A stretch of DNA of 64,000 nt from Candidatus Aminicenantes bacterium (GCA_963702005.1 OY969696.1:2560001-2624000); one strand, 5' to 3'; positions 14,233 through 63,253 are shown, counted from the stretch's first letter. The notes: generated by a model from the sequence alone, not told the origin. Numbers and translations are program-made.

Positions 14233-16122
14233 ATGTCAGAGCGGAGAGCGATCAGGGGCATCCCGAAGAAGGGGAAGGCTCGGGTTCGTGTCCGGCCGGC
14301 GCGCCGGGCCATTCTTCCCGACGGCGAGAAACAGGTCCAAAGCATCCTGATGAGCTCTCCGATTCCCTGTTTTATCATCGACCGCGAGCATCGCGTCCGG
14401 TATTGGAACCGTGCTTTGGCCGTGCTGAGCCAAATGGCCCCGGCCGAGGTCATCGGAACCCATCAACATTGGAAGGCCTTTTACAGGTCGAAACGCCCCT
14501 GCCTGGCCGACCTCCTCGTCGACGGAGATCACAAGGCGATCCGCCGCTGGTACGGGAAGAAGGGCAGCAAGTCCGGCCTGATCAAGGAAGGTTATGTCGC
14601 CACCGACTTCTTCCCCGACCTGGGCCGCGAGGGCCGATGGCTCCATTTCACGGCCGCCGCCATCCGGGATTCGGTGGGAGTCCTAATCGGAGCAATTGAA
14701 ACGCTCGAAGACATCACCGATCTCAAGAAGGCCGAAGAGGCGCTCCTTGAGTCGGAGGAGAAATACCGAACGCTCGTCGAGAACGTCAGCGAGATCATCT
14801 TCAGCGTCGACGTCGAAGGGCGCATCACCTACATCAGCCAACAGGTCGAGAGCGCAACCGGCTACAAACCCAAACAGATCATCGGCCGGCATTTCGGGCA
14901 GTTCGTCCATCCCGAGGACCTGCCCGGATTGAGCGAGAGCTTCCGGCTCAGCCTGGCCGGACATCTCAAATCCTTTGATTTCAGGGTGCTGGGCAAAGGC
15001 GGACGGATCGTCCATGCCCAGGTCTCCAGCCGTCCCATTATCGAGGGGGATCGGGCCGTGGGCCTTCACGGAGTCATTACGGACATCACCGAGCGGAAGC
15101 GTGTGGAACATGAGTTGCGGGACTCGGAGATGAAGTTCCGGGGGCTTTTCGAACATGTCTTCGACGGCGTCTATCAAACCAAACCCGACGGCACCTTCCT
15201 GACGACGAATCCCGCCCTGATCACGATGCTGGGCTATAAATCCGAGGAAGAGCTGTTGGCCCTCAACGTCGCCAGCTTATACGCGAATCCCCGGGACCGC
15301 GAGGTCATGAAAAAGAAGCTCGAAACGGAAGGGGAGCTTCACGGCTACGAGCTGCTCCTGAAGCGCAAGGACGGCCGCCTCATCAACGTCATTCAAAACG
15401 CTTACACCATCAAGGACGGGCGGGGCCGGGTCGCCTACTACGAGGGGACGCTGACCGATGTTACGGCGCTCAAGCAGATCGAAGCCGAGGTCAAGGCCAA
15501 GTTGAAGGAAAAGGACATCATGCTCCAGGAGATCAACCACCGGGTCAAGAACAACCTCCAAATCATCTCGAGCCTGCTCCGCCTCCAATATGATCGCGTC
15601 CTTCATCCCGAGGCCAAGGATATTTTAAGGGGGAGCCTGAACAGAGTTCGGGCGATGGCCCTCACCCACGAAAAACTCTATAAATCCGAGGACCTATCCA
15701 GGATCGATCTCAACGACTACCTGAAAAGTCTGACGACCCACCTGCTGGCCCTCTACGCCGAAGGGGGAGAGAACATCAAGATCCGCATCGAGGCCGAGGG
15801 CGTCTTCCTGGACATCACCCAGGCCAACCCCTGCGGGCTGCTGATCAACGAGCTGGTCACCAACGCGATCCGCCACGCTTTCGACCCCGGCCAGAAGGGG
15901 GAGATCCGCATCGCCGCCGCGCGGGAGCGCGCCGACTGGCTCCGGATCGTCGTCAGAGATACGGGCCGGGGCCTGCCCGGGACGATCGATATCAGAAAGA
16001 CGCACACCCTGGGGATGCAGATCGTCATGGGGCTGATCGACCAGCTCGAAGGGACGATCGAGATGAGGGCCGAGCCGGGCCGCGGGACCGAGTTTGTTAT
16101 TCGGATCCCAGCCAATCTTTGA
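14233..16122 (+). CDS. Cytoplasmic multi-PAS sensor histidine kinase (HisKA_2/HWE-like)
   Basis: Three PAS/PAC repeats; LQEINHRVKNNLQIISSLL H-box, NELVTNAIRHAF, DTGRG, LGMQIV. Confidence 0.9.
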   Translation: MSERRAIRGIPKKGKARVRVRPARRAILPDGEKQVQSILMSSPIPCFIIDREHRVRYWNRALAVLSQMAPAEVIGTHQHWKAFYRSKRPCLADLLVDGDHKAIRRWYGKKGSKSGLIKEGYVATDFFPDLGREGRWLHFTAAAIRDSVGVLIGAIETLEDITDLKKAEEALLESEEKYRTLVENVSEIIFSVDVEGRITYISQQVESATGYKPKQIIGRHFGQFVHPEDLPGLSESFRLSLAGHLKSFDFRVLGKGGRIVHAQVSSRPIIEGDRAVGLHGVITDITERKRVEHELRDSEMKFRGLFEHVFDGVYQTKPDGTFLTTNPALITMLGYKSEEELLALNVASLYANPRDREVMKKKLETEGELHGYELLLKRKDGRLINVIQNAYTIKDGRGRVAYYEGTLTDVTALKQIEAEVKAKLKEKDIMLQEINHRVKNNLQIISSLLRLQYDRVLHPEAKDILRGSLNRVRAMALTHEKLYKSEDLSRIDLNDYLKSLTTHLLALYAEGGENIKIRIEAEGVFLDITQANPCGLLINELVTNAIRHAFDPGQKGEIRIAAARERADWLRIVVRDTGRGLPGTIDIRKTHTLGMQIVMGLIDQLEGTIEMRAEPGRGTEFVIRIPANL

Positions 16123-16717: not shown

Positions 16718-17265
16718 CCTAGAAGAACCATCTTGGCTAGGAGGAGGAGGCCGACGGCGGCCGTCCCGGCTAAGGCCCTATATTCTTTGTTCCTGAGGTA
16801 CAGGCCCCAGCTGAACGCGACCTGGGAAGGGCCGGGGCGCCGTAGGGCCGGGAAAAATAAGGGGACTCGGCGGCGATAGTCGGCGTAGCCGTCGGGGAAA
16901 AGCTCCTTCATACGACGCCTTTCCTTAGCGATCGTCACGCTGTAGAAAACGAGAAAATAAGCCGCGAAGACGGCCAGGGCCGGCCAGGACCAGGCTCCAA
17001 TCGCAAGCCCGATTCCGAGGAGGAAGTTCCCCAGGTAGAGCGGATTCCGGGTCAATCCGTAAGGACCCGAAGTCGCCAGCTCCTTGTCCTTTTTAAGATA
17101 TCCCGAAGCCCAAGCGCGAATGAGAAGACCGCTGAGGCCGATAACGACGAAGGCCAGGAGGGAACGAGTATTGGGCGCGGCGAAGACGAGGGTCAGGATC
17201 AAGGCCGCCAATCCCGCCCGGACCCGGCACCGACAGATGAGCCGTTCGAATCTGCGCTCAGGCAT
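16714..17265 (-). CDS. Isoprenylcysteine carboxylmethyltransferase / PEMT-family membrane protein
   Basis: LATSGPYGLTRNPLYLG, ERRRM..LF...YADY..RVPLFFP. Confidence 0.85.
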   Translation of the reverse strand: MPERRFERLICRCRVRAGLAALILTLVFAAPNTRSLLAFVVIGLSGLLIRAWASGYLKKDKELATSGPYGLTRNPLYLGNFLLGIGLAIGAWSWPALAVFAAYFLVFYSVTIAKERRRMKELFPDGYADYRRRVPLFFPALRRPGPSQVAFSWGLYLRNKEYRALAGTAAVGLLLLAKMVLLG

Positions 17266-18244
17266 CGAGGCCGAGCCTTTCCAGGGCGAGCGAAGCCACG
17301 TCCTCCGAAGTTAGAATTTCGAGACAGCGGAGGTTTCGACACTCCCTCCGGTAGCAGAGGCTGCACTCCAAGCGTCGAAAGGCGACTCGGTCTTCGGGGC
17401 GGAAAGGGCCGTTGCGGGCCGGGTTGGTCGGTCCGAAGATCCCGACCACGGGCACGGACAGGGCGCAAGCGGCCTGGAGGGCGAACGTGTCGCCGCTGAT
17501 GAGAAGCGAGGCTGTCCGGATCAAAGCCATGACCTCGGGAAGAGTCAGATAGGGAACGAGCGGAACACCGGCCGCCCGGCCGACCGCGTCGGCGATCGTC
17601 TTTTCGTCCGCGTTTCCCCAAAGCAGGAGCACGGGCAGCCCCCGGGCTTTCAGCCGTTCGGCAACCCCGATCCATTTTTCCGGCCGCCAGCGCTTGCTCG
17701 CCCAGGCCGCCCCAGTGTTCAGAAGGACAAACGGACGGCCGGCGCGGAGGCCCAGCCCCCCGATCAAGGAGGAGATTTTGGCCGTGAGGGCGCGGGGAAA
17801 GACCAGGGGGAAATCGATGCGGTCGTCGTCGATCCCGATCGCTCTGAGCAGCCTCAGGTTCTTGAGGATGACGTGATCCTCTTCGGAGAGGGGATCGAGC
17901 CGCTCCGTGTAAAAAAGGCCCGCCAGAGGCTCCTTGAGGTTGACTCGGCTGAAACCGATCCGCCTTCGGCTGCGGGAGAGCCGGGAGATATAAGCCGACT
18001 TCAACAAGCCCTGGAAGTCCAGCGCGACCTGGTCCTTAAGCCGGACGCGGGTCCGCCAGCCGGGGCTTCCCAGGACGATGACCTCGTCGATCCCCGGGAC
18101 CAGGTCGAGGATAGCCCGGCCGCTCTTCCCGACGATCCAGGCGACCCGGGCCTTGGGCCGGTGGCGGCGCAAGGCGGCGAAGGCGGGCAACGTATGGATG
18201 ATATCTCCCAGCGAGCTGAGGCGGATGACGAGGTAGCTCTCCAT
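17258..18244 (-). CDS. waaC: LPS heptosyltransferase I-like (GT9)
   Basis: IRLSSLGDIIH, DFQGLLKS, SKRW, GDT, IFGPT; adjacent to ADP-heptose genes. Confidence 0.8.
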   Translation of the reverse strand: MESYLVIRLSSLGDIIHTLPAFAALRRHRPKARVAWIVGKSGRAILDLVPGIDEVIVLGSPGWRTRVRLKDQVALDFQGLLKSAYISRLSRSRRRIGFSRVNLKEPLAGLFYTERLDPLSEEDHVILKNLRLLRAIGIDDDRIDFPLVFPRALTAKISSLIGGLGLRAGRPFVLLNTGAAWASKRWRPEKWIGVAERLKARGLPVLLLWGNADEKTIADAVGRAAGVPLVPYLTLPEVMALIRTASLLISGDTFALQAACALSVPVVGIFGPTNPARNGPFRPEDRVAFRRLECSLCYRRECRNLRCLEILTSEDVASLALERLGLDA

Positions 18245-18247
18245 GCG

Positions 18248-18733
18248 TCAGCCCTTCCCGCCGGAAGCGATCCGCCCGATGATGTCCGTCGCGTTTCTGA
18301 TCTTGGGGCCGCCCGCAATGGCGATCCTGCCGCCATAGGCCTTGACCGTCGCCCGCTCCGGGACGGTTGCCCGGGTATAGTCGGATCCCTTGGCGTGGAC
18401 GTCCGGCTTGAGGGTGAGGAGGACCCTTTCGACATTGGGCTCATTAAAGATCGTGATGTAATCGACGGCGGACAAGGCGCTCAGGATCTCGGCGCGTTCG
18501 AGCTCGGAGAGAATCGGCCGGCCCCGGCCTTTGAGACGGCGGACCGAGGCGTCGCTGTTGAGGGCGACGACGAGGATGTCGCCCCGGCGCCGAGCGTCCT
18601 CGAGATAACGGACGTGCCCGGCATGGATGAGGTCGAAACAGCCGTTGGCCAGGATGATACGCAGGCCTTTTTTCTTGCAACGATCAACGATCCGGCTGAG
18701 CTCTTGCAGGGTTTTAAGTTTCTTCGGCTTCAA
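18248..18733 (-). CDS. hldC: D-glycero-beta-D-manno-heptose 1-phosphate adenylyltransferase (RfaE domain II)
   Basis: NGCFDLIHAGH, LNSDASVRRLKG.GRP, KGSDY. Confidence 0.85.
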   Translation of the reverse strand: MKPKKLKTLQELSRIVDRCKKKGLRIILANGCFDLIHAGHVRYLEDARRRGDILVVALNSDASVRRLKGRGRPILSELERAEILSALSAVDYITIFNEPNVERVLLTLKPDVHAKGSDYTRATVPERATVKAYGGRIAIAGGPKIRNATDIIGRIASGGKG

Positions 18734-19731
18734 GAGCGTATTGCGCCTCGGAGTTCGTCGGGGGACACGGTCGCCGTCCCTTTTTTCATGACGACGAGGC
18801 CGCCCGCGGCGTTGGCGAGGAGGGCGGCATGCCGGAAGCTCGCCCCGGCGGCCAGGGACAGGGTGAAAACGCTGATGACCGTGTCGCCGGCGCCGGTGAC
18901 GTCCACGATATCGGTCGTGCCCCGGACGGGGATGAATAGGGCGGGCTTTCCTTTCTCGAAGAGAGCCATCCCTTTCGACCCGCGCGTAATGAGCAGGGCG
19001 GGGGAGCGGAGCCTGTCGAGAAGGAGCCTGCCCGCGTTCCGAACCGAGGACGGGTCGTCCCCGACCGGACGATTCAGGGCGGCTTCGACCTCGGGCTCGT
19101 TGGGAGTCGCGGCCGTGACGCCGGGGAAACGGAGGAGGCGGAAGCGGGAGTCGAGAAGAACGGCCCGGCCGGCCCGCTTAAAAGCGGAAAGGGCCGACTT
19201 GAACACGTCCTCCTGGACCGTCCGGTAGTTATAATCGGAGATGATGAGGGCGCCGCAGCTCCCGGCCAGTCCGCGCAACGAGGCTGCGAGCTTCCGCTTC
19301 AAAGCGGCGGCGTCCGGGACATAGGCTTCGCGGTCGATCCTCAGGATTTGTTGTTTTCGGGTGTTGTCCTCGCCGGCCAGGATTCGGGTTTTGATCGGCG
19401 TCGCACAGGCTTTATCGCGGGAAAGGCAGGAGGCGGAGATGTGTTGGCTCTTAAGGAGCGCAAGAATCTGGGAGGCGGCTTCGTCGTCGCCGAGGACTCC
19501 GACCGGGATCGGGTTCGCGCCCAGGGCCTTGAGGTTCTGGAGGGTGTTTCCGGCTCCCCCGAGCAGATACTCCCGTTTCCGGAAGGAAAGGATAAGGACG
19601 GGCGCTTCCCTAGAAATACGGCGGGTGCTTCCGTAAACATATTCGTCCAGAATGTAATCGCCCCAGACGGCGATCTTGCGGCCGCGAAATCCGTCGATGA
19701 TGGAGAGGAGGACATCCTTATCGTATGTCAT
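18730..19731 (-). CDS. hldA: D-glycero-beta-D-manno-heptose-7-phosphate kinase (RfaE domain I)
   Basis: GDYILDEY, RISREAPV, GGAGN, TPNE.E, DVTGAGDTV. Confidence 0.88.
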   Translation of the reverse strand: MTYDKDVLLSIIDGFRGRKIAVWGDYILDEYVYGSTRRISREAPVLILSFRKREYLLGGAGNTLQNLKALGANPIPVGVLGDDEAASQILALLKSQHISASCLSRDKACATPIKTRILAGEDNTRKQQILRIDREAYVPDAAALKRKLAASLRGLAGSCGALIISDYNYRTVQEDVFKSALSAFKRAGRAVLLDSRFRLLRFPGVTAATPNEPEVEAALNRPVGDDPSSVRNAGRLLLDRLRSPALLITRGSKGMALFEKGKPALFIPVRGTTDIVDVTGAGDTVISVFTLSLAAGASFRHAALLANAAGGLVVMKKGTATVSPDELRGAIRS

Positions 19732-19862
19732 GGCCGATTAGAAAGAATATTTATCAGAAACGGCCTAAAAAGGCAAACAGGGACGGTCGACGTCAATACT
19801 TTCTGCACAATTACTTGTGCATTTTCATTTTAACGAAGGAAAGAAAACGGAAGACGTTATTG

Positions 19863-20477
19863 AAAGTAAAGATCCCCGCGGCAAGCCGCGGGGCATTAGG
19901 AGCGCAGCTTCAAGGCCAGCTGCGCAGGCCCTTGCTCCAGTTCTCGGTGACTGACGATGTACTTCGCGATCACATCCCTCGTCATCCGGTCTCCGACCGT
20001 CCTTGCGAAATATCCGTCCTCCCACACTTCCCCGCCCCATAGCTTCTTTTTCAAGCCCGCAAACTCGCGAAACAACCCCCTCCCACTCATGCTCTTTATG
20101 ATCCTGACGACCTCCCCGATCGATCGCGATGGCGGAAATGATACTAGCAAATGAATATGATCTTCGGTAATTTCCATCTCGATGATTTCAATATCGTACG
20201 ATTCGCAAATCTCTCCCATGATCTGTTTCGCTCGTTCCCGGACTTCCACCCGCTCGAATATCTTCTTCCGGTACTTCGGACACCAGACCAGATGGTAGGA
20301 CGTGTCGTAGACCGAATGACTCGTCCGTTTCAGCGTCACCCATATACTTTACCACACTCCCGAGCAAGGGCCTTTGTGGATAAGGGGGACTTTCCGGTCC
20401 CCCTGATCACCCCCTCGGCAAGGCATACATTCCACCCCGTGGCAAGCCACGGGGCAGCCTGTAAAGCTTTCGTGCAA
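19863..20477 (-). mobile_element. IS200-family insertion sequence, copy 1 (tnpA only)
   Basis: 615 bp shared with 54728-55342; subterminal hairpins CCCCGCGGCAAGCCGCGGGG and CCCCGTGGCAAGCCACGGGG. Confidence 0.92.
19896..20339 (-). CDS. tnpA: IS200/IS605 Y1 (HUH) transposase
   Basis: YHLVWCPKYR, DHIHLL, W..GYF..TVG and catalytic KYI. Confidence 0.95.
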   Translation of the reverse strand: MTLKRTSHSVYDTSYHLVWCPKYRKKIFERVEVRERAKQIMGEICESYDIEIIEMEITEDHIHLLVSFPPSRSIGEVVRIIKSMSGRGLFREFAGLKKKLWGGEVWEDGYFARTVGDRMTRDVIAKYIVSHRELEQGPAQLALKLRS

Positions 20478-20509
20478 TCGGATTAGTATGATAATGAATT
20501 CCTGTCCGA

Positions 20510-21136
20510 TTATTTCACCTTGATGATGAAATTCACGGCGGCGTTCTTGGGCCTGGTTTCTTCTCCCGCGTTGAGCCGCGATTTGGTGTTATATCTTATC
20601 GCGCCTAATATATTCGCCTTCGCCGAGGTGGTGTTATATACATTCGTGCCTTGCCAGACCGACGTTCCTGATCCTGTATCAGCAATATCAACATACGCAG
20701 CCAAACCAGCGAAGGTGTGAATATGCTCCGTCTGGTCGTGCGTATGATTCTGCAGCGAATCTTCTTGCACGGACCCGACGCCCGTCGCGCTTCCGCCGGG
20801 CTTGGACGGCGCCCTCTTCTTGACGTCCGGGTCCCGGCCGCTCCCGGCGTCGTCGCCCCGCAGGAATCTTCCTCGGAGATCCGGCAGGTAGAACGTGTAG
20901 CCGCTCCCCCCCCAGCGTCTCCCGATAACCGCATAGAGGTCCTTATAAACAGCCGTGTTCATCGCCTTGCCGTCGCACAGCATCCAGCCTGCGGGAACCG
21001 ATTTTGCTTCTCCAGCCCAGGCGATGATCGTCCCCACCGGTAGCGAATCGCTGGCCGCCCTCGCCGGAGCCATGATTCCTACGGCGCCCACAGCCGACAA
21101 CATTGATAGAACGCCGGCCAATACTAAGTTCTTCAT
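20510..21136 (-). CDS. Secreted phage tail-collar domain protein, copy 1
   Basis: Signal peptide ending APARA; PVGTIIAW, GWMLCDG, F.LPDLRGRFLRG, HTH..HIH, ETRPKNAAVNFIIK. Confidence 0.88.
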   Translation of the reverse strand: MKNLVLAGVLSMLSAVGAVGIMAPARAASDSLPVGTIIAWAGEAKSVPAGWMLCDGKAMNTAVYKDLYAVIGRRWGGSGYTFYLPDLRGRFLRGDDAGSGRDPDVKKRAPSKPGGSATGVGSVQEDSLQNHTHDQTEHIHTFAGLAAYVDIADTGSGTSVWQGTNVYNTTSAKANILGAIRYNTKSRLNAGEETRPKNAAVNFIIKVK

Positions 21137-21246
21137 AGCTAGCCCTCCTTACAAAAACAGGATAAGCCGGATAAGGATTCCCATTTCAATCACGTCCGCC
21201 CGCAATCCACACTTCAGGTCGAATGCTCATCCTGCTTCTTGGGACA

Positions 21247-21275
21247 AAGATAAATCCCTGTCCTGGATATGTCAA
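21247..21275 (-). promoter_or_regulatory. sigma70 promoter of collar gene 1
   Basis: TTGACA-17bp-TATCTT on the minus strand. Confidence 0.65.
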
Positions 21276-21317
21276 GGATAGGGGAAGAGAGGTCGGGTTG
21301 CTCGGCGATCGTCCGCG

Positions 21318-21400
21318 GGGAGTCCGATGCGGTCAGGGAAGGCCCGGACCTATGCGGATCGGGCGCTTCCGATCACGAGCGGGACGGGCAAGCCCGAAGC
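21318..21400. repeat. About 83-bp intergenic repeat, copy A (copy B at 22132-22214)
   Basis: Shared core CCCGGACCTATGCGGATCGGGCGCTTCCGATCACGAGCGGGACGGGCAAGCC downstream of collar genes 2 and 3. Confidence 0.85.
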
Positions 21401-22038
21401 TATTTCACCTTGATGATGAAATTCACGGCGGCGTTTTTCGGGCGCGTTTCTTCTCCCGCGTTGACTCGCGATTTGGTGCCGTACTTAATCGCGCCCATGA
21501 TATTTGCAGAGGCCGAGTCTGTATTGGTGTAGCTGCTCGTCCACGAATTCATGTTGACCGCATAATAGCCTGACGCTGATGTAGTCGCCCCAAAAGAGGA
21601 GGTATATCTCCCATACATATGCTGATGGGGAGTTTGCTCATGCGCATGGTTTTGCAGCGAATCCTCCTCGACCGAACCGACTCCCGTGGCGCTGCCGCCA
21701 GGATTGGAGGGCATTCGCTTCTTCACATCAGGGTCACGGCCCGTTCCGGCATCGTCCCCCCGGAGGAACCTTCCCCTCAGGTCGGGCAGGTTGAACTTAT
21801 CGCCTGCGCTTCCCCATGACGTTCCGATGGCCGTGAAGAGTTCTTTATAGACCGATTTGCTCAGAGCCTTCCCGTTGCACAGCATCCAGCCAGCCGGAAC
21901 GGAACTCGATGTTCCGCACCAGGCGATGACAGTGCCCACCGGAAGCGAGTCACCGGCAGCGCGCGCTGGCGCCATGATTACTGCGATGCCCATAATTAAT
22001 AACGAAGATAGAACCCCTACCAATAGCAACTTTTTCAT
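21400..22038 (-). CDS. Secreted phage tail-collar domain protein, copy 2
   Basis: Same motifs as copy 1; ATG 22038 with RBS GGAGGG. Confidence 0.88.
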   Translation of the reverse strand: MKKLLLVGVLSSLLIMGIAVIMAPARAAGDSLPVGTVIAWCGTSSSVPAGWMLCNGKALSKSVYKELFTAIGTSWGSAGDKFNLPDLRGRFLRGDDAGTGRDPDVKKRMPSNPGGSATGVGSVEEDSLQNHAHEQTPHQHMYGRYTSSFGATTSASGYYAVNMNSWTSSYTNTDSASANIMGAIKYGTKSRVNAGEETRPKNAAVNFIIKVK

Positions 22039-22068
22039 TGAGCCCTCCACAATCCACAATCTGGGACA

Positions 22069-22097
22069 AGAATATGTGCCATCTTAGGAGATGTCAA
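22069..22097 (-). promoter_or_regulatory. sigma70 promoter of collar gene 2
   Basis: TTGACA-17bp-TATTCT. Confidence 0.65.
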
Positions 22098-22131
22098 GGA
22101 CGAAGGGATGATAGGTTGGCGGCCGCCCGTA

Positions 22132-22214
22132 GGGAGTCCGATGAGGCCGAGGAAAGCCCGGACCTATGCGGATCGGGCGCTTCCGATCACGAGCGGGACG
22201 GGCAAGCCTGGAGC
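22132..22214. repeat. About 83-bp intergenic repeat, copy B
   Basis: Near-identical to 21318-21400. Confidence 0.85.
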
Positions 22215-22843
22215 TATTTTACCTTGATGATGAAATTGACTGCGGTGTTCTTGGGACGGGTTTCCTCTCCGGCGCTGACCGCTGATTTTGTATTGTATCT
22301 ATTTGCGCCGAGGATATTCGCGTTCGAAGAAGTCGAGGTTAGATGTTTCGTATTCGTCCCTTTGATCCAAGTCCCACTTCCAGTATCGGCAATTTGAAAG
22401 ATATTGTACTCGAAAAGGTAATCATGGGTATGGGGAGTTTGGTCATGTGAATGGTTTTGCAGCGAATCCGCTTGAACGGAGCCGACACCGGTCGTATTGC
22501 CGCCCGGATTGGACGGAACCCTTTTATTCGCGTCGGGGTCACGGCCCGTTCCAGCATCGTCGCCCCGGAGGAATCGCCCCCTCAGGTCGGGCAGGTTGAA
22601 CTTATCGCCCGCGCTTCCCCAAGATGTCCCGATAGCCGTGAAGAGTTCTTTATAGACCGATTTGTTCAGAGCTTTGCCGTTGCATAGCATCCAGTTGGCT
22701 GGCACGGAGCTCGATGGACCGCCCCAGGCGATGATGGTGCCCACGGGCAGCGAATTGTCCGTCGCCCTTGTTGGGGCCATGATACCCACCGCGCCCACAG
22801 CCGACAACGTTGATAGAACGCCGGCCAATACTATGTTCTTCAT
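22214..22843 (-). CDS. Secreted phage tail-collar domain protein, copy 3
   Basis: Same motifs; HSH..HTH. Confidence 0.88.
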   Translation of the reverse strand: MKNIVLAGVLSTLSAVGAVGIMAPTRATDNSLPVGTIIAWGGPSSSVPANWMLCNGKALNKSVYKELFTAIGTSWGSAGDKFNLPDLRGRFLRGDDAGTGRDPDANKRVPSNPGGNTTGVGSVQADSLQNHSHDQTPHTHDYLFEYNIFQIADTGSGTWIKGTNTKHLTSTSSNANILGANRYNTKSAVSAGEETRPKNTAVNFIIKVK

Positions 22844-22946
22844 AGCTATCCCTCCTTATAAAAACAGGATAAGCCGGATAAGGATTCCCTTTTCAACCGC
22901 ATCCGCCCGCAATCCAGGTCGTTTTCGCATCCTGCGAACTAAGACA

Positions 22947-22975
22947 AGCATAAGGACCGGCTTGGTAGGTGTCAA
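22947..22975 (-). promoter_or_regulatory. sigma70 promoter of collar gene 3
   Basis: TTGACA-17bp-TATGCT. Confidence 0.65.
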
Positions 22976-23062
22976 GGACGGCGGGAAGAGAGGCCGGGAC
23001 AGGATATTCTCAAGTTGCACGAAACAATAAAATCGCATATATTTTTAGAGCTTCGACCGGGT

Positions 23063-23094
23063 GCCGGAGTGGCGGAACTGGCAGACGCGCTGGA
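23063..23094 (+). pseudogene. Truncated 5' fragment of tRNA-Leu
   Basis: GCCGGAGTGGCGGAACTGGCAGACGCGCTGGA matches 25012-25043 with one mismatch, and about 90 bp of upstream sequence is also duplicated; no T-arm follows. Confidence 0.85.
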
Positions 23095-23211
23095 ATAAAA
23101 ATTCCTTCGTCGTTGATGCGGGGCGATGGCGAAAATTTATTTATTCAAGGCCCGGGCCGGAAAATCCGGGCGATTCTGAGCGCAAGCGGGACGAAATTAA
23201 AAGGGGGGATT

Positions 23212-23841
23212 CTATTTCACCTTGATGATGAAATTCACGCTCGCGTTCTTGGGACGGGTTTCCTCTCCGGTTTTGACCTGAGACTTTGTTTTATACGTTT
23301 TCGCGCCCATGATGTACGCAGTACTCGGGAGGCCACTCCTTTCAGTGGACGGGTTAGGTCGCATGAACTGCCAATCTAGCCCCGCCTGGGCATTCGCGCT
23401 GTAATTATGGTCCTCGAAATTATGGCTATGCGGGGCCTGATCATGCGTATGGTTTTGCATCATGTCATCTTGGACCGATCCGACGCCCGTCGCGCTGCCG
23501 CCCGGATTGCAGGGCTTGCGATTCTTTGCATCGGGATCCCGGTGCGTTCCGGCATCCTCGCCCCGGAGGAATCTTCCTCTGAGGTCCGGCAGGTTGAACT
23601 TATCGTCTGCGCTTCCCCATGACGTTCCGATGGCCGTGAAGAGTTCTTTATAGACCGATTTGCTCAGAGCCTTCCCGTTGCATAGCATCCAGTTTGCTGG
23701 AACGGAGCTTGATACGCCGCCCCAGGCGATGATGGTGCCCACTGGCATTCCATCGTCGGTCGCCCTCGCCGGTGCCATAATGCCTACGGCGCCCACAGCC
23801 GACAACATTGAAAGAATCCCCGCCAACACGAAATTTTTCAT
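23212..23841 (-). CDS. Secreted phage tail-collar domain protein, copy 4
   Basis: Same motifs; HTH..HSH. Confidence 0.88.
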   Translation of the reverse strand: MKNFVLAGILSMLSAVGAVGIMAPARATDDGMPVGTIIAWGGVSSSVPANWMLCNGKALSKSVYKELFTAIGTSWGSADDKFNLPDLRGRFLRGEDAGTHRDPDAKNRKPCNPGGSATGVGSVQDDMMQNHTHDQAPHSHNFEDHNYSANAQAGLDWQFMRPNPSTERSGLPSTAYIMGAKTYKTKSQVKTGEETRPKNASVNFIIKVK

Positions 23842-24178
23842 CGCTTTCCCTCCTTATATATAGAGATATTTTTGAAATTGGACCCATTTTCCGCAAGCCG
23901 GGATGTCCGAAGGCGGCAGCTTGCGAAGAGCCATAGCTTTCAAAAACGGCACAGAACTATTTCTCCGTTTTGCTAAAACCAACCCCGATATAAATATGTT
24001 ATATACTCAGCTGATGATCGAAATCAACAAAAGACAAATACCTCATTCGGACCGTTTTTGGTAATGCTTATCCGTTTACCGAAATTGCCCTCCTTCTTGG
24101 GAACGGGGATTAGCGTCACCTTGAGCAATCGTTCCCCCTTGGGGCGACGCAGATGAATAAAGTGGGGTTGTCCTTCGT

Positions 24179-24805
24179 TCATCTCACCTTGATGATGAAA
24201 TTCACGGCCGCGTTCTTGGGGCGGGATTCTTCTCCCGCCTTGATTTCTGAGCTGGTTTTGTATTTTATTGCGCCGAATAATTCCGGTTGGGCCCATGTCG
24301 TGGTTCGAGCGCCTTCAGTAGCCCAGGCGAACAAATAATCATTACCTAAATCTGCTTTAGCGTAGCCATCATAATGTTGATAATTATGGTTATGTCGATT
24401 CTGATAGTGCGAATGCTCTTGAATGGAATCCTCTTGCACCGAGCCGACGCCTGTCGCGCTGCCGCCGGGATTGGAAGGCTTCCGCTTTTTCACATCGGGG
24501 TCGCGGCCCGTCCCGCCATCATCACCCCGAAGGAACCTCCCCCTTAGGTCAGGCAGGTTGAATTTATCGCCGGAACTTCCCCACGAGGTTCCGATGGCAG
24601 CGAAAAGGTCTTTATAGACTGTTTTGTTTAGCGCTCTGCCGTTGCACAACATCCAGCTCGTCGGGATGGAGCTTGTCTCCCCGCCCCAAGCGATGATGGT
24701 GCCCACGGGCAGCGAATTGTCCGTCGCCCTTGTTGGGGCCATGATACCCACCGCGCCCACAGCCGACAACATTGATAGAACGCCGGCCAATGCTAAGTTC
24801 TTCAT
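24179..24805 (-). CDS. Secreted phage tail-collar domain protein, copy 5
   Basis: Same motifs; HSH..HNH. Confidence 0.88.
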   Translation of the reverse strand: MKNLALAGVLSMLSAVGAVGIMAPTRATDNSLPVGTIIAWGGETSSIPTSWMLCNGRALNKTVYKDLFAAIGTSWGSSGDKFNLPDLRGRFLRGDDGGTGRDPDVKKRKPSNPGGSATGVGSVQEDSIQEHSHYQNRHNHNYQHYDGYAKADLGNDYLFAWATEGARTTTWAQPELFGAIKYKTSSEIKAGEESRPKNAAVNFIIKVR

Positions 24806-24895
24806 AGCTAACCCTCCTTATTAGGATTCCCTTTTCAACCGCGTCTACCCGCAATCCGTAATTCAGATCGATTTTCCATCTTGCTACTTGGGACA

Positions 24896-24924
24896 AAGAT
24901 AAATCCCTGTTCTGGATATGTCAA
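24896..24924 (-). promoter_or_regulatory. sigma70 promoter of collar gene 5
   Basis: TTGACA-17bp-TATCTT. Confidence 0.65.
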
Positions 24925-25011
24925 GAACGACGGGATGAGAGGTCGGGACAGGATATTCTCAAGTTGCGCGAAATGATAAAATCGCATATATTTTTAGAGC
25001 TTTGACCGGGT

Positions 25012-25100
25012 GCCGGAGTGGCGGAAATGGCAGACGCGCTGGACTCAAAATCCAGTCCGGGGCGACTCGGGTGTGGGTTCGATTCCCTCCTCCGGCACCA
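25012..25100 (+). tRNA. tRNA-Leu (CAA)
   Basis: Acceptor stem GCCGGAG/CTCCGGC, anticodon arm CTGGA-CTCAAAA-TCCAG, long variable arm, GGTTCGATTCC, encoded CCA. Confidence 0.96.
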
Positions 25101-25121
25101 TATGTTGCGAGGAGGGTTTGA

Positions 25122-26177
25122 ATGAACTTTGCGCGGGTCGCGCTGGCGGCCGCGGCGTTTTGCGCCGCCTGCGCCACGGCGAGCGCGCCCGCGGCGGCGC
25201 CCAAGGGCCCGCTCCCTGCCTTCCAGAAAGGGATCGCCTACACCGGCTATTCGAGCGGAGCCTACGAGGGCGAGGGAGCGCGCCGGGCCGTGAAGGACCT
25301 AGCGGCGACGAACGCTCGCTGGATCCAGGTCCTCGTCACGGGCTATCAAGACACGATCAAGTCCACCTTTATAACCCGGACGGGGAAAGAGACGCCTACG
25401 GACTCTTCCCTGACCGGGATCATCCGCTACGCCAAAAGCCTCGGCCTGAAGGTTTTTCTGAAGCCCCACGTCGACCTTCTCCTCGACCCCACCCGCTGGA
25501 GGGGGGAGATCGGCCTGGGATTCACGGAAGCGGAGTGGGATCTCTGGTTCTTGTCCTACCGGGCTTTCCTAGTCCATTATGCCCTCATGGCCGAGAGCTT
25601 GGGCGTGGAAATGTTCTGCGCCGGCTGCGAGCTCGATTCGACCGTCGGCCGCGTCGAGGATTGGCGCCGGACGATCGGCGCCGTTCGGACCGTTTACAAA
25701 GGCCGATTGACCTACGCCGACGATCAGATCGAGCAAGATCCGGATGCCGTCCAGTGGTGGAACGCCCTGGACTTCATTGGCATGGACGCCTACCCGACGC
25801 TGACCGACAAGCTCCATCCGACCGTCGAAGACTTCAGCTCGGGCTGGTCCCGCTACATCGCGGAGCTGCGCGCGCTCGCGCGCCGATGGCGGAAGCCCCT
25901 GATCCTGACCGAGATCGGCTACCGGAGCGTCCAGGGCGGCGCCCAGAATCCCTGGGATTGGCAGCGTACGGGGCCGGTCGATCTGGAGGTCCAGGCCAAC
26001 GCCTATGAGGCGGCTTTCGGGGCGGTCCAGGGAGAGGATTGGCTCCGGGGCATGTATTGGTGGCAGTGGTCGCCCGACCCGGACGAGGGCGGGACCGGTG
26101 ACACCGGATATACCCCTCACGGCAAGCCGGCCGAGAAGGTCCTGACGGCCCGTTATAAACGGGCCTTCCTGCGATAG
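25122..26177 (+). CDS. GH113-family glycoside hydrolase (TIM barrel), exported
   Basis: LKVFLKPHV, WRGEI, GCEL, LTYA, LDFIGMDAY, LTEIGYRS, G.YWWQW. Confidence 0.8.
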   Translation: MNFARVALAAAAFCAACATASAPAAAPKGPLPAFQKGIAYTGYSSGAYEGEGARRAVKDLAATNARWIQVLVTGYQDTIKSTFITRTGKETPTDSSLTGIIRYAKSLGLKVFLKPHVDLLLDPTRWRGEIGLGFTEAEWDLWFLSYRAFLVHYALMAESLGVEMFCAGCELDSTVGRVEDWRRTIGAVRTVYKGRLTYADDQIEQDPDAVQWWNALDFIGMDAYPTLTDKLHPTVEDFSSGWSRYIAELRALARRWRKPLILTEIGYRSVQGGAQNPWDWQRTGPVDLEVQANAYEAAFGAVQGEDWLRGMYWWQWSPDPDEGGTGDTGYTPHGKPAEKVLTARYKRAFLR

Positions 26178-27995: not shown

Positions 27996-30527
27996 TTGAA
28001 AGCCTCGCGTTTCGACCGCCTCCTGATCCGGGTCGCCGACATCCGGCCCGCCGAACGTCCGTTCGCGGTCCTGTTTTTCCTGTACTTCTTCCTGATCACG
28101 TTTCCGGCCTACATCATCAAGCCCGTCAAGCTCTCCCTTCTCCTTCGCTCGTTCAAGGCCGGGGACCTTCCTTACGCCTATCTCCTGTCGGCCGTGTTGA
28201 TCGGGTTCGTGGCTACGCTCAACGCCCGCCTCCTCGAGCGGCTTCCGCGCCGGCGCTACCAGGCCGGAACCATCCTGTTCTTCATGTCCAACCTCGTCCT
28301 GTTTTGGTTCCTGCTCAAGTCCCATTGGCCGGGTCTGAGCTTGATCTACTGGTTTTGGTCGGACGTTTTCATCGCGACGACCGTGACCCAGTTCTGGATC
28401 GGCTTCCACGACGTCTTCCATCCCCACCAAGCCAAGCGGCTCATCGGGTTTCTGGTCAGCGGAGGCCTGCTGGGCGGGATCTGCGGGTCGCTTTTAGCCG
28501 GGTGGCTGGCTCGGCTCATCGGCACCGAAAACCTTCTCCTTGTCTGTCCGGCCGTCTTGGCCGGAACCTTCGTCGTCATCGAAGCCCTCCATCGCCAGCG
28601 GGCGAAAGCCCCGGCCGGGGGCGGGGCGCGCGATCAGATCCCGGATAAGCGGCCGCCGGTCTCCACCCGTGCCCTGGAGGGATTCCGGCTCCTCCGCAGC
28701 AGCCGCTACTTGTCCCTCCTGGCCGGAGTCCTGGTCTTGGCGGTCGTCGTCGGGACCCTTATCGAGCTCCAGTTCAACACGATCCTCCAAGCCTTCGTCA
28801 AGGACAAGGACGCCAGGACGGCCTTCATCGCCACCTTCTTCGCCATCCTGCTCATCATCTCCTACCTGTTCCAGGTGTTCGTGTCCGGGCCGATCCTGAG
28901 GCGCTTCGGCATCAAGACCGCCCTCGTCATCGGACCCGTCCTTCTGCTGGCCGGCGCCTTCTCCATTTTCATCGTTCCGGCCGGGGCCCTCATCGCTTGG
29001 GCCGTCGCGGCCCGCGGGACCGATAAGGGCATGGACAACACACTCAACCAGTCCGTCCGGGAGCTGCTCTACATTCCGGTCCCGGCCGGCATCAAGTACA
29101 AGGCGAAGCTCTTTATCGACATGTTCGTGACCAAGTTCGCGAACGGCATCGGAGCGCTCCTCTTTCTGGTCACTTTCACGGGCCTCCACTGGTCGGTCCG
29201 CAAGGTCAGCTTCCTGAGCCTGGCCCTGATCGCCGTCTGGTTCGTCCTCGTCAGGCTCATCCACTTGGAGTATATCCGTGTCGTCAAGCAGGACCTCGAA
29301 CGGCGCTGGGAAGACGGGCACAGGCTCGTCGCCGAACGGGTCGACCTGGACATGACCCGGCTCATCTTCGACACGATCCAAAGTCGGGAAAAAAGTTCCT
29401 CGCTATACCTGATGAACCTGTTTGACCTGGTCGGGAAGGAGAAGCTGACCCCGGAGCTCAAAAAGCTTATCGCCTCCCAGGCCGAGGAGTACCGCCTCAG
29501 GACCCTGGATTCCGTCCTCGATGTCGGAGCCGAAGCGTCCGGCCTGGAGGTCGGTGACATCTTCGAGGACGCGGATTGGCAGAGGAATATCCGGGAGATC
29601 CTCGAGCTCGATTCCTACCGTAAGGTCATGGACGAATACCTCAAGCAAACCTTGTCCGGATCGAAACGGGCCGATGAGATATCCCGCATGGAGGCGGCCA
29701 AGCTCCTGGGGCTGCGCGGACCGTCGCCGGCCGCCGTCCGCGGTTTGAAGGCCCTCCTGGCCGATCCCTCGGCCGAGGTCCTGAACTACGCCCTCGGCAG
29801 CGCCGCCCGGCTCCAAAGGAAAGAGCTGCTGCCCGTCGTCATCGGCCACCTGGCTAATCCCCAGATCCGCCAGGTCGCCGCCGACGCCCTGGTCGCTCAC
29901 GGCGAGAAGGCCCTGCCCGTCCTGAAAGCCCATTTGGAGGACGGCCGCCGGAACCTCGAACTTCGGCGCACCCTTCCCGACATACTGGCCAGAATCGGCA
30001 CGCCCAAGGCCGCCGACATCCTGCTCGGAGAGCTCGATAAAAAGATGACGGAGATCCTGGAGGCCGAGATCATCGAGGCTCTTTTCCGCTTGAAATTGAA
30101 AAATCCCGATATTCGTTTCCGCGAGAAGCGGGTCTTCCCGCTCGTCCTGGACCAGATCCGGCAGTCTTGCCGGCTTTTCCTGGACCTCTGTTCGGCCAAG
30201 ACCGAATCCTCCTGCCCCGACGTCCGATCCGACGTACGGATGGCGCTGGCCCTCAAGAGGATCTTCGAGCTCTTGAGCCTCGTCTATCCGATCGAGGATG
30301 TCGTCCGGGCCTACCAGAACCTTCTGACCGGGACCGAGCGTTCGGCCGATTATTCTCTGGAACTCCTCGACAACATCCTCAACAAGGAGATCCGGGACGG
30401 TCTGGCCCCGCTGGTCGAAGCCTGGCCGACCGAGGAAAGGATCCGGCGCTGCCGGAAGTTTTTAGCCGGGTCCCGGCCCGGACGCCGGGAGGGGGCTTCC
30501 CCTCCGAAGGTGACTCGGATAGAATGA
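27996..30527 (+). CDS. NTT/TLC (Npt1/Npt2) nucleotide translocase fused to HEAT repeats
   Basis: YIIKPVK, QFW..F.DVF....AKRL, RELLYIPVP...KYKAK.FID; C-terminal helical HEAT-like repeats. Confidence 0.85.
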   Translation: MKASRFDRLLIRVADIRPAERPFAVLFFLYFFLITFPAYIIKPVKLSLLLRSFKAGDLPYAYLLSAVLIGFVATLNARLLERLPRRRYQAGTILFFMSNLVLFWFLLKSHWPGLSLIYWFWSDVFIATTVTQFWIGFHDVFHPHQAKRLIGFLVSGGLLGGICGSLLAGWLARLIGTENLLLVCPAVLAGTFVVIEALHRQRAKAPAGGGARDQIPDKRPPVSTRALEGFRLLRSSRYLSLLAGVLVLAVVVGTLIELQFNTILQAFVKDKDARTAFIATFFAILLIISYLFQVFVSGPILRRFGIKTALVIGPVLLLAGAFSIFIVPAGALIAWAVAARGTDKGMDNTLNQSVRELLYIPVPAGIKYKAKLFIDMFVTKFANGIGALLFLVTFTGLHWSVRKVSFLSLALIAVWFVLVRLIHLEYIRVVKQDLERRWEDGHRLVAERVDLDMTRLIFDTIQSREKSSSLYLMNLFDLVGKEKLTPELKKLIASQAEEYRLRTLDSVLDVGAEASGLEVGDIFEDADWQRNIREILELDSYRKVMDEYLKQTLSGSKRADEISRMEAAKLLGLRGPSPAAVRGLKALLADPSAEVLNYALGSAARLQRKELLPVVIGHLANPQIRQVAADALVAHGEKALPVLKAHLEDGRRNLELRRTLPDILARIGTPKAADILLGELDKKMTEILEAEIIEALFRLKLKNPDIRFREKRVFPLVLDQIRQSCRLFLDLCSAKTESSCPDVRSDVRMALALKRIFELLSLVYPIEDVVRAYQNLLTGTERSADYSLELLDNILNKEIRDGLAPLVEAWPTEERIRRCRKFLAGSRPGRREGASPPKVTRIE

Positions 30528-55342: not shown

Positions 55343-55388
55343 AAAGGAAATTTACACTAAGGGTAAAAGTGTAGGTTTGACCCCGATC

Positions 55389-60440: not shown

Positions 60441-60459
60441 ATTTGACATTTCCCAGGTA

Positions 60460-60487
60460 ATTATAAACATTTACATAGGAATTGCAA
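60460..60487 (-). promoter_or_regulatory. Putative sigma70 promoter of abiEi-abiEii-hsdR
   Basis: TTGCAA-16bp-TATAAT on the minus strand. Confidence 0.5.
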
Positions 60488-60554
60488 GTCTTTTCTCGAA
60501 GGGGAGGAGGACTCCTTGCCCAAGTTATTTACGTAACTTTTATAAGCCCCCCGC

Positions 60555-60586
60555 TTATTAAAGGATAATGGCTTATCCTTTAATAA
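60555..60586. promoter_or_regulatory. Perfect 14-bp inverted repeat (candidate operator)
   Basis: TTATTAAAGGATAA-TGGC-TTATCCTTTAATAA in the AT-rich divergent intergenic region. Confidence 0.55.
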
Positions 60587-63252: not shown

Positions 63253-63253
63253 G

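Follow-up and report, generated by a model that had tools for sequence, protein, structure and literature searches.

A family of eight small leader-bearing proteins homologous to the receptor-binding head of T4 gp12, probably an exported sugar-binding set, in a Candidatus Aminicenantes genome

Eight small genes in one Candidatus Aminicenantes genome encode homologs of the T4 gp12 receptor-binding domain, and these gp12-type heads probably act as an exported sugar-binding set with different binding tips. Five of the paralogues (g1 to g5; 208-212 aa each) lie co-oriented on the minus strand at positions 20510-24805 of the window, i.e., the whole 64,000-nt stretch of DNA that was analyzed, and three more (g6, g7, and g8) lie elsewhere in the single-contig genome, bringing the family to eight. 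The reading that we favor, and consider fairly likely, is that the proteins are exported as trimeric heads that bind glycans, each of one of several discrete specificity types, and are spread as cargo of mobile elements. The features of the array and its surroundings are as follows:

17258..19731, minus strand: chromosomal left flank, with heptosyltransferase (GT9), cytidylyltransferase-like, and PfkB-kinase (rfaE-type) genes, kept in relatives
19896..20339, minus strand: IS200-type Y1 transposase adjoining the 3' end of the array (Pfam Y1_Tnp, E = 3.7e-40)
20510..21136, minus strand: paralogue g1, 208 aa, with leader, Collar, two HxH dyads, variable head, and conserved C-terminal strand
21247..21275, minus strand: sigma-70-like promoter match of g1 (TTGACA, 17 nt, TATCTT)
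21400..22038, minus strand: paralogue g2, 212 aa if begun at MKK (an upstream TTG would give 219 aa)
22069..22097, minus strand: promoter-like match of g2, whose 5' leader is shortened
22214..22843, minus strand: paralogue g3, 209 aa, the reference sequence
22217-22309, minus strand: g3 putative C-terminal return strand, residues 179-209
22310-22420, minus strand: g3 variable head, residues 142-178
22424-22453, minus strand: g3 HxH pair, residues 131-140
22568-22741, minus strand: g3 Collar, residues 35-92
22763-22843, minus strand: g3 leader, residues 1-27
22907..23102, plus strand: segmental copy, 82% identical to 24856-25051 (g5 upstream region and approximately the first 40 nt of tRNA-Leu)
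22947..22975, minus strand: promoter-like match of g3
23212..23841, minus strand: paralogue g4, 209 aa, upstream region without the common promoter and leader block
24179..24805, minus strand: paralogue g5, 208 aa
24896..24924, minus strand: promoter-like match of g5
25012..25100, plus strand: tRNA-Leu(caa), marker of the insertion hot spot

The sequence-only reading of this DNA had described five co-oriented genes, each having a leader, a collar domain, a pair of HxH dyads, a highly divergent stretch, and a conserved end, and our ORF calls, Pfam scan, and alignment agree with that description. More specifically, the Collar domain (PF07484) was matched in all five window proteins at residues 35-92 (E = 2.5e-19 to 1.2e-18; 67-69 bits, the Pfam cut-off being 24 bits) and eight times genome-wide; a search of NCBIfam returned no family for the five. 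Alignment of the eight genomic paralogues revealed that H131, H133, H138, and H140 are invariant, as is the C-terminal motif G-E-E-x-R-P-K-N..V-N-F-I-I-K-V (8 of 8), and H131 and H133 are at least 90% conserved across 80 sequences. Between these elements lies a divergent block of ~37-41 columns (residues 142-178), in which within-genome identity is 0.05-0.41, compared with 0.66-0.92 in the collar. Only 32 residues precede the collar, leader included, so that there is no N-terminal shaft or attachment domain, and the collar begins ~5 residues past the predicted cleavage site.

Homology to gp12 extends over the whole domain. The family profile matched gp12 chains 1ocy, 1pdi, and 5iv5 with E values from 2.2e-17 to 1.5e-15, query residues 28-209 aligning end to end with the receptor-binding domain (gp12 337-526). 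In the HMM alignment, the first HxH falls on the H-K-H of gp12, its zinc site, and the C-terminal motif is matched too; the HxH neck of the window proteins is a putative metal-binding site. A PDB sequence search returned six chains, all of them phage tail-fibre proteins (E up to 1), the best PHROGs match was a tail collar fibre protein (E = 4e-35), and the top Foldseek matches were gp12, the cyanophage A-1(L) fibre, and the gp37 tip. The proposal that each protein is a stand-alone gp12-type head is thereby upheld, as the profile alignment runs from the collar to the C-terminal return strand. The window proteins nevertheless depart from T4 gp12 (1OCY, 1PDI, 5IV5), with which they have in common the collar, HxH, and C-terminal motif and possibly the knitted trimer: (i) they lack the N-terminal shaft and baseplate-binding part and carry an export-type leader there instead; (ii) they contain one HxH dyad more, and their head is much shorter; (iii) they are not encoded with tail genes; and (iv) identity is only ~26% in the fold alignment.

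The g3 homotrimer model gave an ipSAE of 0.90 (0.92, 0.87, and 0.90 in separate runs) versus 0.00 for the best control. In calibration, this tool's mark was reached by 20 of 30 one-chain pairs with solved structures and by 1 of 23 single chains. The model contains ~700 contacts, with at least 79% contact agreement between runs and partner pLDDT of at least 85, and residues 189-204 contact residues 87-104 of the neighbouring chain; the monomer model alone reached a pLDDT of only 70.5. The proteins model as a knitted homotrimer and may form one, with the qualification that gp12 trimers have already been solved, so the score may reflect likeness to, or memory of, such a complex only. From homology and the monomer model, the variable segment would lie exposed at the distal end.

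The leaders consist of M-K, ~20 hydrophobic residues, and A-P-(A/T)-R-A. Judged from the listed N-termini, such a leader is kept in 61 of 61 members of the close clade, its sequence drifting. A crude rule on hydrophobicity and charge, on which the label "Sec-type" rests, flagged leaders in 75 of 99 cellular homologues versus 13 of 112 on viral contigs, most of the 13 being artefacts; in some distant homologues, lipoboxes replace such leaders. These observations fit the export-type leaders proposed from the sequence, and the window proteins are probably exported. Two other routes were discarded, namely lipoprotein anchoring, because the leaders have no Cys (no lipobox), and twin-arginine export, because they have no RR. 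The genome encodes two secretins and gave no match to GspL, so the proteins may stay periplasmic, and in that case binding of cell-surface glycans may not apply.

Promoter consensus matches were found for four of the five window genes, and an alignment of upstream regions placed a common promoter block before seven of the eight paralogues. For g1, the match is followed by a conserved ~100-nt leader and then by an AGGAGG ribosome-binding site. An Rfam scan of 19700-25300 returned tRNA only and no known family for this conserved 5' leader, which was also without covariation support (covariation term +0.99; 1 compensatory pair in 30). The segmental copy at 22907..23102 is a trace of duplication inside the array; it has diverged, given that the exact 42-nt tRNA start was found once only at up to 3 mismatches.

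The genes had been described as domesticated; they are not simply so, as their genomic setting identifies them as mobile cargo. The array occupies the rfaE/tRNA-Leu junction, which is uninterrupted in two relatives (G002 and G003), where tRNA-Leu lies ~240 bp from the rfaE-type gene with nothing between, and a third relative (G001) carries different cargo at the same tRNA-Leu site. The array is therefore an insertion at a tRNA-Leu hot spot, and we dropped a link to the neighbouring heptose genes, since their adjacency is a product of insertion at a site that holds other cargo in G001. Similarly, a 14.9-kb integrative element, bounded by a perfect 48-bp tRNA-Arg repeat and encoding an integrase, a primase-helicase, and a TerL-like protein, carries g6 and g7 at its att-proximal end, and g8 adjoins a displaced 55-bp tRNA-His fragment, with a broken integrase near the intact tRNA-His. 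In three relatives checked for an empty tRNA-Arg site, the contigs stop at the tRNA, and a 100-bp multicopy repeat lies in the right flank of the element. GC3 of the array genes (0.61-0.69) is lower than that of their neighbours (0.75-0.88).

The Y1 transposase beside the array is 1 of 11 near-identical genome copies (at least 99% identity by BLAST), and the window holds two IS200 transposases and a defence island. The host is a sediment bacterium. Some contigs from four DNA runs, each run comprising short contigs that cover small shares of the region, bridge parts of the array (X1, 21083 to 24753; X4, 22905 to 24848; X3, 19776 to 24979). Such contigs could represent shorter arrays or an empty site in other strains, or equally well assembly paths across repeats or foreign DNA from other organisms.

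Among 53 window ORFs scanned with Pfam, none matched a capsid, baseplate, sheath, or integrase family (the ORFs being drawn from 59 greedily called ORFs and a few more from the ORF list), in agreement with the original description of the window. Extending the search to the genome (one contig, 4.31 Mb, 94% complete), we obtained no match to models of sheath, gp25, baseplate J, HK97-type capsid, portal, or tape measure (PF04984, PF04965, PF04865, PF05065, PF04860, and PF10145), which divergent structural genes could escape. One TerL-like ORF is present, in the element holding g6 and g7. With no contractile-tail or other tail gene matched genome-wide, the array genes are not parts of a split prophage tail or eCIS, a possibility for which a search for eCIS and tailocin genes had been proposed.

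The heads fall into discrete types that are conserved between genomes and are not hypermutating. Heads common to different genomes were found for g8 and P0006 (identity 1.00), g1 and P0010 (0.94), and g3 and P0002 (0.86); in the case of g1 and the metagenome protein P0010, the heads are 94% identical and the collars only 70%. Of the earlier claim of hypervariable heads, the divergent repertoire (0.05-0.41 identity) stands, and the discrete types are a correction to it. Likewise, variation driven by a diversity-generating retroelement (DGR) was rejected, as the single RVT_1 match, at 0.666 Mb, lies >1 Mb from all three loci; that the heads differ in length, yet are conserved between genomes, also counts against a DGR target. 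Across the eight genes, dN/dS was 0.11-0.18 in the leader, collar, and C-terminus, indicative of all eight being kept functional. In the head, pN was 0.57 and dN/dS ~0.75, a ratio that is uninterpretable for positive or diversifying selection because dS is saturated (~1 or more).

A scan of named genomes with patterns from the eight paralogues yielded 167 pattern matches, none of them confirmed; a broader alignment succeeded. Leader-bearing relatives, often arrayed, occur across many phyla; the species genomes that were scanned contain at least 539 such loci. The notion of a repertoire holds in that the paralogues have different heads, and has to be widened in that the kind is not unique to this genome. 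In other phyla, uncharacterised stalked Collar proteins, e.g., six tandem copies in a Chitinophagaceae MAG (locus L193) and those of a Limisphaerales MAG (L161), resemble the window proteins in their export-type leader, gp12-type head, conserved C-terminus, and tandem arrays, and have no phage structural neighbours. They differ in size (median 304 aa) and in having ~129 residues (stalk) before the collar, and are 32-45% identical to the window proteins; the L161 array also mixes Collar, S74, and Gp53-like tips. Only 3 of the 75 leader-flagged cellular homologues are as minimal as the window proteins. Small Collar forms of the COG4675 kind (~165-200 aa) occur in metagenome loci in twos and threes (e.g., L075, L076, L086, L088, L091, and L095) or as two sets of three (L064), and their matches to the window profile are mostly confined to the collar. 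The window proteins retain the complete gp12-type head and C-terminus; they also carry a leader, and each gene stands alone with its own promoter (four of five matched).

Under the names searched, we found no study of leader-bearing Collar protein arrays in the literature. We regard the mosaic adhesive trimer (MAT) proteins of Bdellovibrio bacteriovorus as, by analogy, the nearest functional counterpart. In their published description, whose main text does not use the word "collar", these are signal-bearing trimeric phage-fibre-like adhesins with a repertoire of 21 paralogues that differ in their C-terminal binding tips, one member of which binds prey surface glycans, and are defined by a beta-rich domain (~130 aa) that is conserved and follows the signal peptide, and by a stalk of beta-helical or prism form (PMC10769870). 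The window proteins are likewise cellular, leader-bearing (by the heuristic rule), and fibre-like, and form a paralogous repertoire with different tips, but they have neither the ~130-aa domain nor the stalk. Proteins of COG4675, or "microcystin-dependent protein" (MdpB), a name that JGI gives to close relatives, contain the same Pfam domain and are listed among those detected in a soil metaproteome (PMC5579227). By description rather than sequence, the family can also be likened to a paralogous "phage tail collar domain" group of Candidatus Solibacter usitatus Ellin6076, for which a positive codon-based selection statistic (Z 3.7) is reported (PMC3174227).

Homology, domain layout, genomic setting, and mobility are established by the data above; the picture that we draw from them for the eight paralogues, from export and trimer formation to metal binding, glycan binding, and biological role, would run as follows. 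Each gene would give rise to a small pre-protein exported by the Sec route, in most cases from its own sigma-70-type promoter, and in the cell envelope three chains would intertwine into a homotrimer like the receptor-binding head of T4 gp12. Such a trimer would comprise a collar, a neck whose HxH dyads are held together by metal ions, and a distal head formed by the ~37-residue divergent hairpin, from which the C-terminal strand would return to the collar. On this common scaffold, different heads would supply a repertoire of discrete specificities; as with phage fibre tips, the targets would most likely be glycans of the envelope or the environment. As there is no shaft, anchor, or toxin domain, the proteins would be free trimeric lectin-like binders and not particle parts. 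The family spreads by local duplication and by travelling on integrative elements that target tRNA genes.

A rather unlikely alternative is that the genes are cargo for receptor masking or superinfection exclusion, with exported mimics of receptor-binding protein (RBP) heads occupying the receptors or the periplasmic entry route of competing phages; several head types would then cover several classes of phage receptor. The att-proximal position of g6 and g7 in their element, the placement of g8 beside a tRNA-His fragment, the insertion of the array at the tRNA-Leu hot spot, the promoters of most genes, and the low GC3 are all consistent with such cargo, as is the lack of an anchor or shaft, owing to which the proteins can bind and block but cannot tether. 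Against it, PADLOC assigned no family to the four collar proteins scanned, the two secretins without a GspL match offer no clear surface route, and homologues in other phyla have stalk domains and ordinary chromosomal surroundings. No exported RBP mimic is known to us to serve in defence, and the literature searched yielded none. The bolder form of this idea, in which satellite-like elements carry exported, anchorless RBP-head mimics as a new kind of superinfection exclusion and a modular anti-adsorption repertoire, is decidedly unlikely; under it, each type of head would either occupy all receptors of a single envelope class or catch incoming tail tips in the periplasm.

We consider it very unlikely that the leader is an uncleaved signal-anchor holding the trimeric head in the periplasm, where it would bind peptidoglycan or lipid-linked glycans or block phage DNA entry. 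The ~20-residue hydrophobic core is long enough for such an anchor, several clade members have no clean small-x-small site after it, and the missing GspL match fits as well, but a canonical A-x-A preceded by proline (A-P-A-R-A and the like) is present in 8 of 8 copies and, judged from the N-termini, in most close relatives. Least probable is that the proteins are distal fibre-tip subunits of a phage or satellite, with the "leaders" serving as N-terminal docking helices: phages do encode separate short collar/HxH tips beside long fibres (L212 and L231), 1707 phage records contain homologues, and two copies share an element with a TerL-like gene, but all phage matches are <60% identical (31-40% for full-length matches on viral contigs), the phage homologues inspected have no such leaders, only ~5 residues lie between leader and collar, no tail, baseplate, capsid, or portal family was matched in the genome, and five copies stand in the window without any phage gene.

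Among modular proteins that bind the surface glycans of bacteria, phage fibre tips are the best understood. In this family, the binding head alone has been parted from the particle, given a predicted export signal, multiplied into types, and placed on mobile elements. With a mature protein of ~180 aa and eight natural head variants on one scaffold, the family offers the smallest form for testing. If its members block phage receptors, they would represent a new defence principle, and the anti-adsorption logic might also explain the widespread leader-bearing Collar arrays of other phyla; if they are lectins or adhesins, they would provide many small glycan binders that assemble by themselves, a resource so far untapped.

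Five co-oriented genes of 208 to 212 aa were called on the minus strand of the window at 20510-24805, and each of the encoded proteins (g1 to g5) carries a Pfam Collar match (E ~1e-19, residues 35-92), with no NCBIfam model matched by any of the five. Aligned with one another, g2 to g5 show 61 to 69% identity to g1; near-invariance is seen in the leader, the collar, the neck, and the final 30 residues, and residues 142-178 (the head) are almost unalignable. The source genome (G000; one contig, 4.31 Mb, estimated completeness 94%) holds three extra copies, namely a pair at 2.736-2.738 Mb (g6 and g7) and a single gene at 1.793 Mb (g8). In all eight paralogues, H131, H133, H138, and H140 as well as the C-terminal motif G-E-E-x-R-P-K-N..V-N-F-I-I-K-V are invariant. 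The sequence-only reading had thus described the array correctly as to its open reading frames, collar domains, invariant HxH pairs and C-terminus, and divergent segment.

All eight copies begin with M-K, about 20 hydrophobic residues, and A-P-(A/T)-R-A, the collar starting about 5 residues further on, and these leaders contain neither Cys nor twin arginine. The N-termini of the close clade (61 sequences, at least 46% identity), read by eye, keep this arrangement in 61 of 61 cases with varying letters; since the arrangement is retained while the letters change, the leader would appear to behave as a targeting signal rather than as a folded part. A crude rule (mean Kyte-Doolittle hydropathy ≥ 2.2 in a 10-residue stretch close to the start, together with K or R) flagged 75 of 99 Collar ORFs at 79 loci from named genomes and 13 of 112 at 77 loci from viral contigs, most of the latter 13 being internal starts or cases in which the collar's first strand supplied the hydrophobic stretch. 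None of the phage homologues inspected had such a leader. Some distant homologues possess lipoboxes, which again would point to the envelope. The hydrophobic core of the leader is long, and the putative signal peptide may instead be an uncleaved membrane anchor. A genome search returned two secretins and no match to GspL.

A profile built from the five proteins matched the C-terminal receptor-binding domain of T4 gp12, the short tail fibre (1ocy, 1pdi, and 5iv5; E 2.2e-17 to 1.5e-15), and the alignment runs end to end (query 28-209, gp12 337-526). More specifically, the first HxH aligns on the H-K-H of gp12, which we take to be its zinc site, and the C-terminal motif aligns on the gp12 C-terminus. 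In the related fibre tip gp37, iron is held by repeated HxH motifs. With its two HxH dyads, a trimer of the window proteins would be expected to hold two metal ions. The PHROGs match was to "tail collar fiber protein" (E 4e-35). In an AlphaFold2 monomer model, of moderate confidence only (pLDDT 70.5), the leader forms an N-terminal helix, the collar is predicted with confidence, and the variable block takes the form of a beta-hairpin (residues 141-169); in Foldseek it matched best with gp12, the A-1(L) fibre of a cyanophage, and the tip of gp37. Residues 28-209, taken in three copies, were modelled as a homotrimer with an ipSAE of 0.90 (runs 0.92, 0.87, and 0.90; best of three controls, 0.00). 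In calibration, the pass mark was attained by 20 of the 30 one-chain pairs with solved structures and by 1 of the 23 single chains, and this pass may show likeness only, because gp12 trimers are already solved. The trimer model has ~700 contacts, with at least 79% contact agreement between runs and partner pLDDT of at least 85, and nearly all of residues 118-204 lie in inter-chain contact, an arrangement that in the model would fit the knitted head of gp12.

Divergence among the paralogues was partitioned by region, as the sequence-only reading had proposed.

Nei-Gojobori estimates by region, 28 pairs among the eight paralogues
Leader, collar, and C-terminus: pN 0.10-0.11; dN/dS 0.11-0.18
HxH block: pN 0.25; dN/dS 0.27
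Head: pN 0.57; pS 0.76, saturated; dN/dS ~0.75

The values outside the head indicate purifying selection and, with dS at ~0.7-1.1 there, the copies are old and all under such selection; the head value of ~0.75 stands on saturated pS, so that positive selection cannot be claimed. Across the 1830 pairs of the 61 close-clade members, mean identity was 0.67 for collars and 0.16 for heads. Nonetheless, particular heads recur between genomes (g8 versus the homologue P0006: head 1.00, collar 0.91; g1 versus P0010: head 0.94, collar 0.70; g3 versus P0002: head 0.86, collar 0.82), and the heads are therefore discrete, conserved types. That a head is better conserved than its own scaffold in at least one case suggests, from sequence comparison, that heads are exchanged as cassettes or else that collars are homogenised within a genome. 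A diversity-generating retroelement is unlikely, the only reverse transcriptase of the genome being over 1 Mb distant from each of the three loci.

The array occupies a junction that is short in two relatives. The interval from an rfaE-type gene to tRNA-Leu is ~240 bp both in G002, a genome of the same genus, and in G003, a complete genome from another family of the order; in the source genome, 5.1 kb is inserted there, consisting of one IS200 copy and the five genes. In a second same-genus genome (G001), a different 5.5-kb insert occupies this hot spot; it encodes several small membrane proteins along with signal peptidase I, and the direct repeat that flanks it contains the tRNA's first 42 nt. 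The g5 upstream region, together with the start of the tRNA, recurs at 82% identity upstream of g3, which we read from the sequence as a trace of segmental duplication within the array. GC3 is 0.61-0.69 in the five array genes versus 0.75-0.88 in flanking genes. The IS200-type element is probably active, since its 11 genomic copies are at least 99% identical. The array is mobile cargo. The other two loci also adjoin partial tRNA copies. The features concerned are as follows.

Window 19862-20480 and 54761-55204: IS200-type copies (nine more in the source genome)
G001 contig 192, 6800-12794 (locus L113): the different insert at the rfaE/tRNA-Leu hot spot
Source genome 2723217-2738194 (loci L114 and L098, 1-14195 of the latter): 14.9-kb element integrated at tRNA-Arg(acg), bearing perfect att repeats of 48 bp
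Source genome 1793865-1793919 (locus L100, 10866-10920): perfect 55-bp copy of the tRNA-His(gtg) 3' part, directly upstream of g8
Source genome 2224851-2224927: intact tRNA-His(gtg), 431 kb from the 55-bp copy and on the opposite strand
Source genome 2221894-2222022: broken integrase (89-aa frame), 2.8 kb from the intact tRNA-His

The g6/g7 pair sits between a tyrosine integrase and the 48-bp copy of the tRNA-Arg 3' part, the intact tRNA being 14.9 kb leftward. Besides this integrase, the element encodes Cro/CI-type and AlpA-type HTH proteins, a primase-helicase (AAA_25), a TerL-like ORF (phrog_2, E 1e-19), and several ORFs without a match; no capsid or tail match was obtained within it, and its layout resembles that of phage satellites. 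For g8, the positions of the tRNA-His copies would be accounted for by a single large inversion passing through an old integrated element. In G002, a collar-gene copy has its 3' end adjoining DNA that is found at 3.857 Mb in the source genome, where there is no copy. No other fragment was detected in the 40 relatives compared from the order (1 genome of 40), but many of their assemblies are fragmented, with repeats breaking contigs. Two further repeats were seen near these loci. A full tRNA-Glu(ctc) (L100 6900-6975) and a shorter 68-nt call (9027-9094) lie 2 kb apart at ~1.790-1.792 Mb and bracket a 560-aa ORF without a family match, which may be another small tRNA insertion. At ~2.7386 Mb (L098 ~14570-14730), a ~100-bp repeat with more than 40 copies in G001 (82-97% identity) looks like a MITE.

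Upstream regions are shared as well. A match to TTGACA-17-TAT(C/G/T)(C/T)T precedes four of the five window genes by 110-140 nt, promoter-like sites in the array region numbered 9 versus 3.8 ± 1.7 in shuffles, and the upstream alignment shows the promoter block to be common to seven of the eight paralogues. In six of the eight, the full ~100-nt 5' leader and an AGGAGG site are present too; in g2 the promoter is retained but the 5' leader is shortened, g5 misses ~20 nt of it just ahead of the ribosome-binding site, and the upstream region of g4 is different.

Window 21137-21250, 22844-22950, and 24806-24900, and upstream of g6 to g8: conserved ~100-nt 5' leader, from promoter match to ribosome-binding site

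As this segment matched no Rfam family and showed no covariation, it may simply be copied along with the gene.

The profile retrieved 54,166 cluster representatives at E ≤ 1e-3, of which 533 also pass E ≤ 1e-30. Among the matches are many proteins ~510-540 aa long with three to five collar stretches per chain (e.g., P0123, P0125, and P0128) in which, judged by their sequences, the trimer may have been joined into one chain. The unfused form of these may be represented by genes of ~165-200 aa that lie side by side in sets of two or three (L064, L075, L086, L091, and L095). Close relatives (46-77% identity) form 53 clusters besides the genome's own eight, come from metagenomes or unnamed sources only, and are labelled "microcystin-dependent protein" by JGI; longer metagenome contigs (L019, L020, and L021) carry single copies, with housekeeping neighbours where checked (L019 and L020). 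All 1707 matching phage records fell below 60% identity, and full-length matches on viral contigs were at 31-40%. When one genome was scanned per species, at least 539 loci were confirmed; the best-scoring 79 (32-45% identity) were examined and belong to Bacteroidota, Myxococcota, Verrucomicrobiota, Spirochaetota, Bdellovibrionota, Planctomycetota, Cyanobacteria, and Proteobacteria. Most of their proteins have a putative leader, then ~129 residues, then the collar (median 304 aa); 13 loci hold two to six tandem copies, and only 3 of 75 leader-flagged Collar proteins are as minimal as those of the window. Phage structural neighbours were found at none of the six loci whose neighbours were scanned.

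In a Limisphaerales MAG (L161, 419-6495), fibre-like proteins that bear leaders are encoded in tandem and have mixed tips: four Collar-tipped members share an N-terminal stalk motif, and two interspersed genes end in an S74 chaperone or a Gp53-like tip. This mosaic array resembles the mosaic adhesive trimer (MAT) proteins of Bdellovibrio bacteriovorus, yet lies outside Bdellovibrio. MAT proteins are described as signal-bearing trimeric fibres of the predator surface, one member of which binds prey glycans (PMC10769870). The N-terminal domain and stalk that define MAT are absent from the window proteins, which are therefore not members. Other papers list COG4675 proteins in a soil metaproteome (PMC5579227), report a positive selection statistic for a tail-collar paralogue group of Solibacter usitatus (PMC3174227), and present a PilV/tail-collar fusion in a shufflon, read by its authors as a pilus reusing a phage tail domain (PMC9881135); the name "microcystin-dependent protein" occurs in a brucellaphage paper. 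Open-access literature searched under tail-collar and microcystin-dependent names contained no account of exported stand-alone gp12-type heads.

Genome searches for sheath (PF04984), gp25 (PF04965), baseplate J (PF04865), HK97-type capsid (PF05065), portal (PF04860), and tape measure (PF10145) gave no match; all six gave matches in control genomes, although divergent structural genes could still escape. A prophage tail or eCIS split from the array, which the earlier reading had named as a possible refutation, was rejected on these grounds, and its statement that the window lacks capsid, baseplate, sheath, and integrase genes held among the 53 ORFs scanned with Pfam, none of which is an integrase or phage structural gene. 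The surroundings of the array are ordinary (heptose and LPS genes, GH113, GH28, GH42, NamZ, and regulators), with a defence island further on. Besides an IS200 copy, this island (54761-63953; GC lower, 0.48-0.50 at 60-64 kb) encodes a 1191-aa fusion of a type I restriction R subunit with a Schlafen/AlbA_2 domain, the toxin-antitoxin pair AbiEii/AbiEi, and the specificity subunit HsdS. Separately, TLC-type proteins resembling ATP/ADP transporters are encoded at 27996-30527 and at 35367-36743, one of the two being fused to MFS and HEAT repeats; such proteins are unusual in a free-living sediment bacterium.

A receptor-masking or exclusion function would be a less probable reading, one that fits both the mobile-element setting and proteins without any anchor; a part in a virion is unlikely. 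It is reasonably well supported that the window proteins are binding heads carried on mobile elements and predicted to be exported, to form trimers stapled by metal, and to have discrete specificities, and our best guess as to their role is that of a free lectin-like binder.
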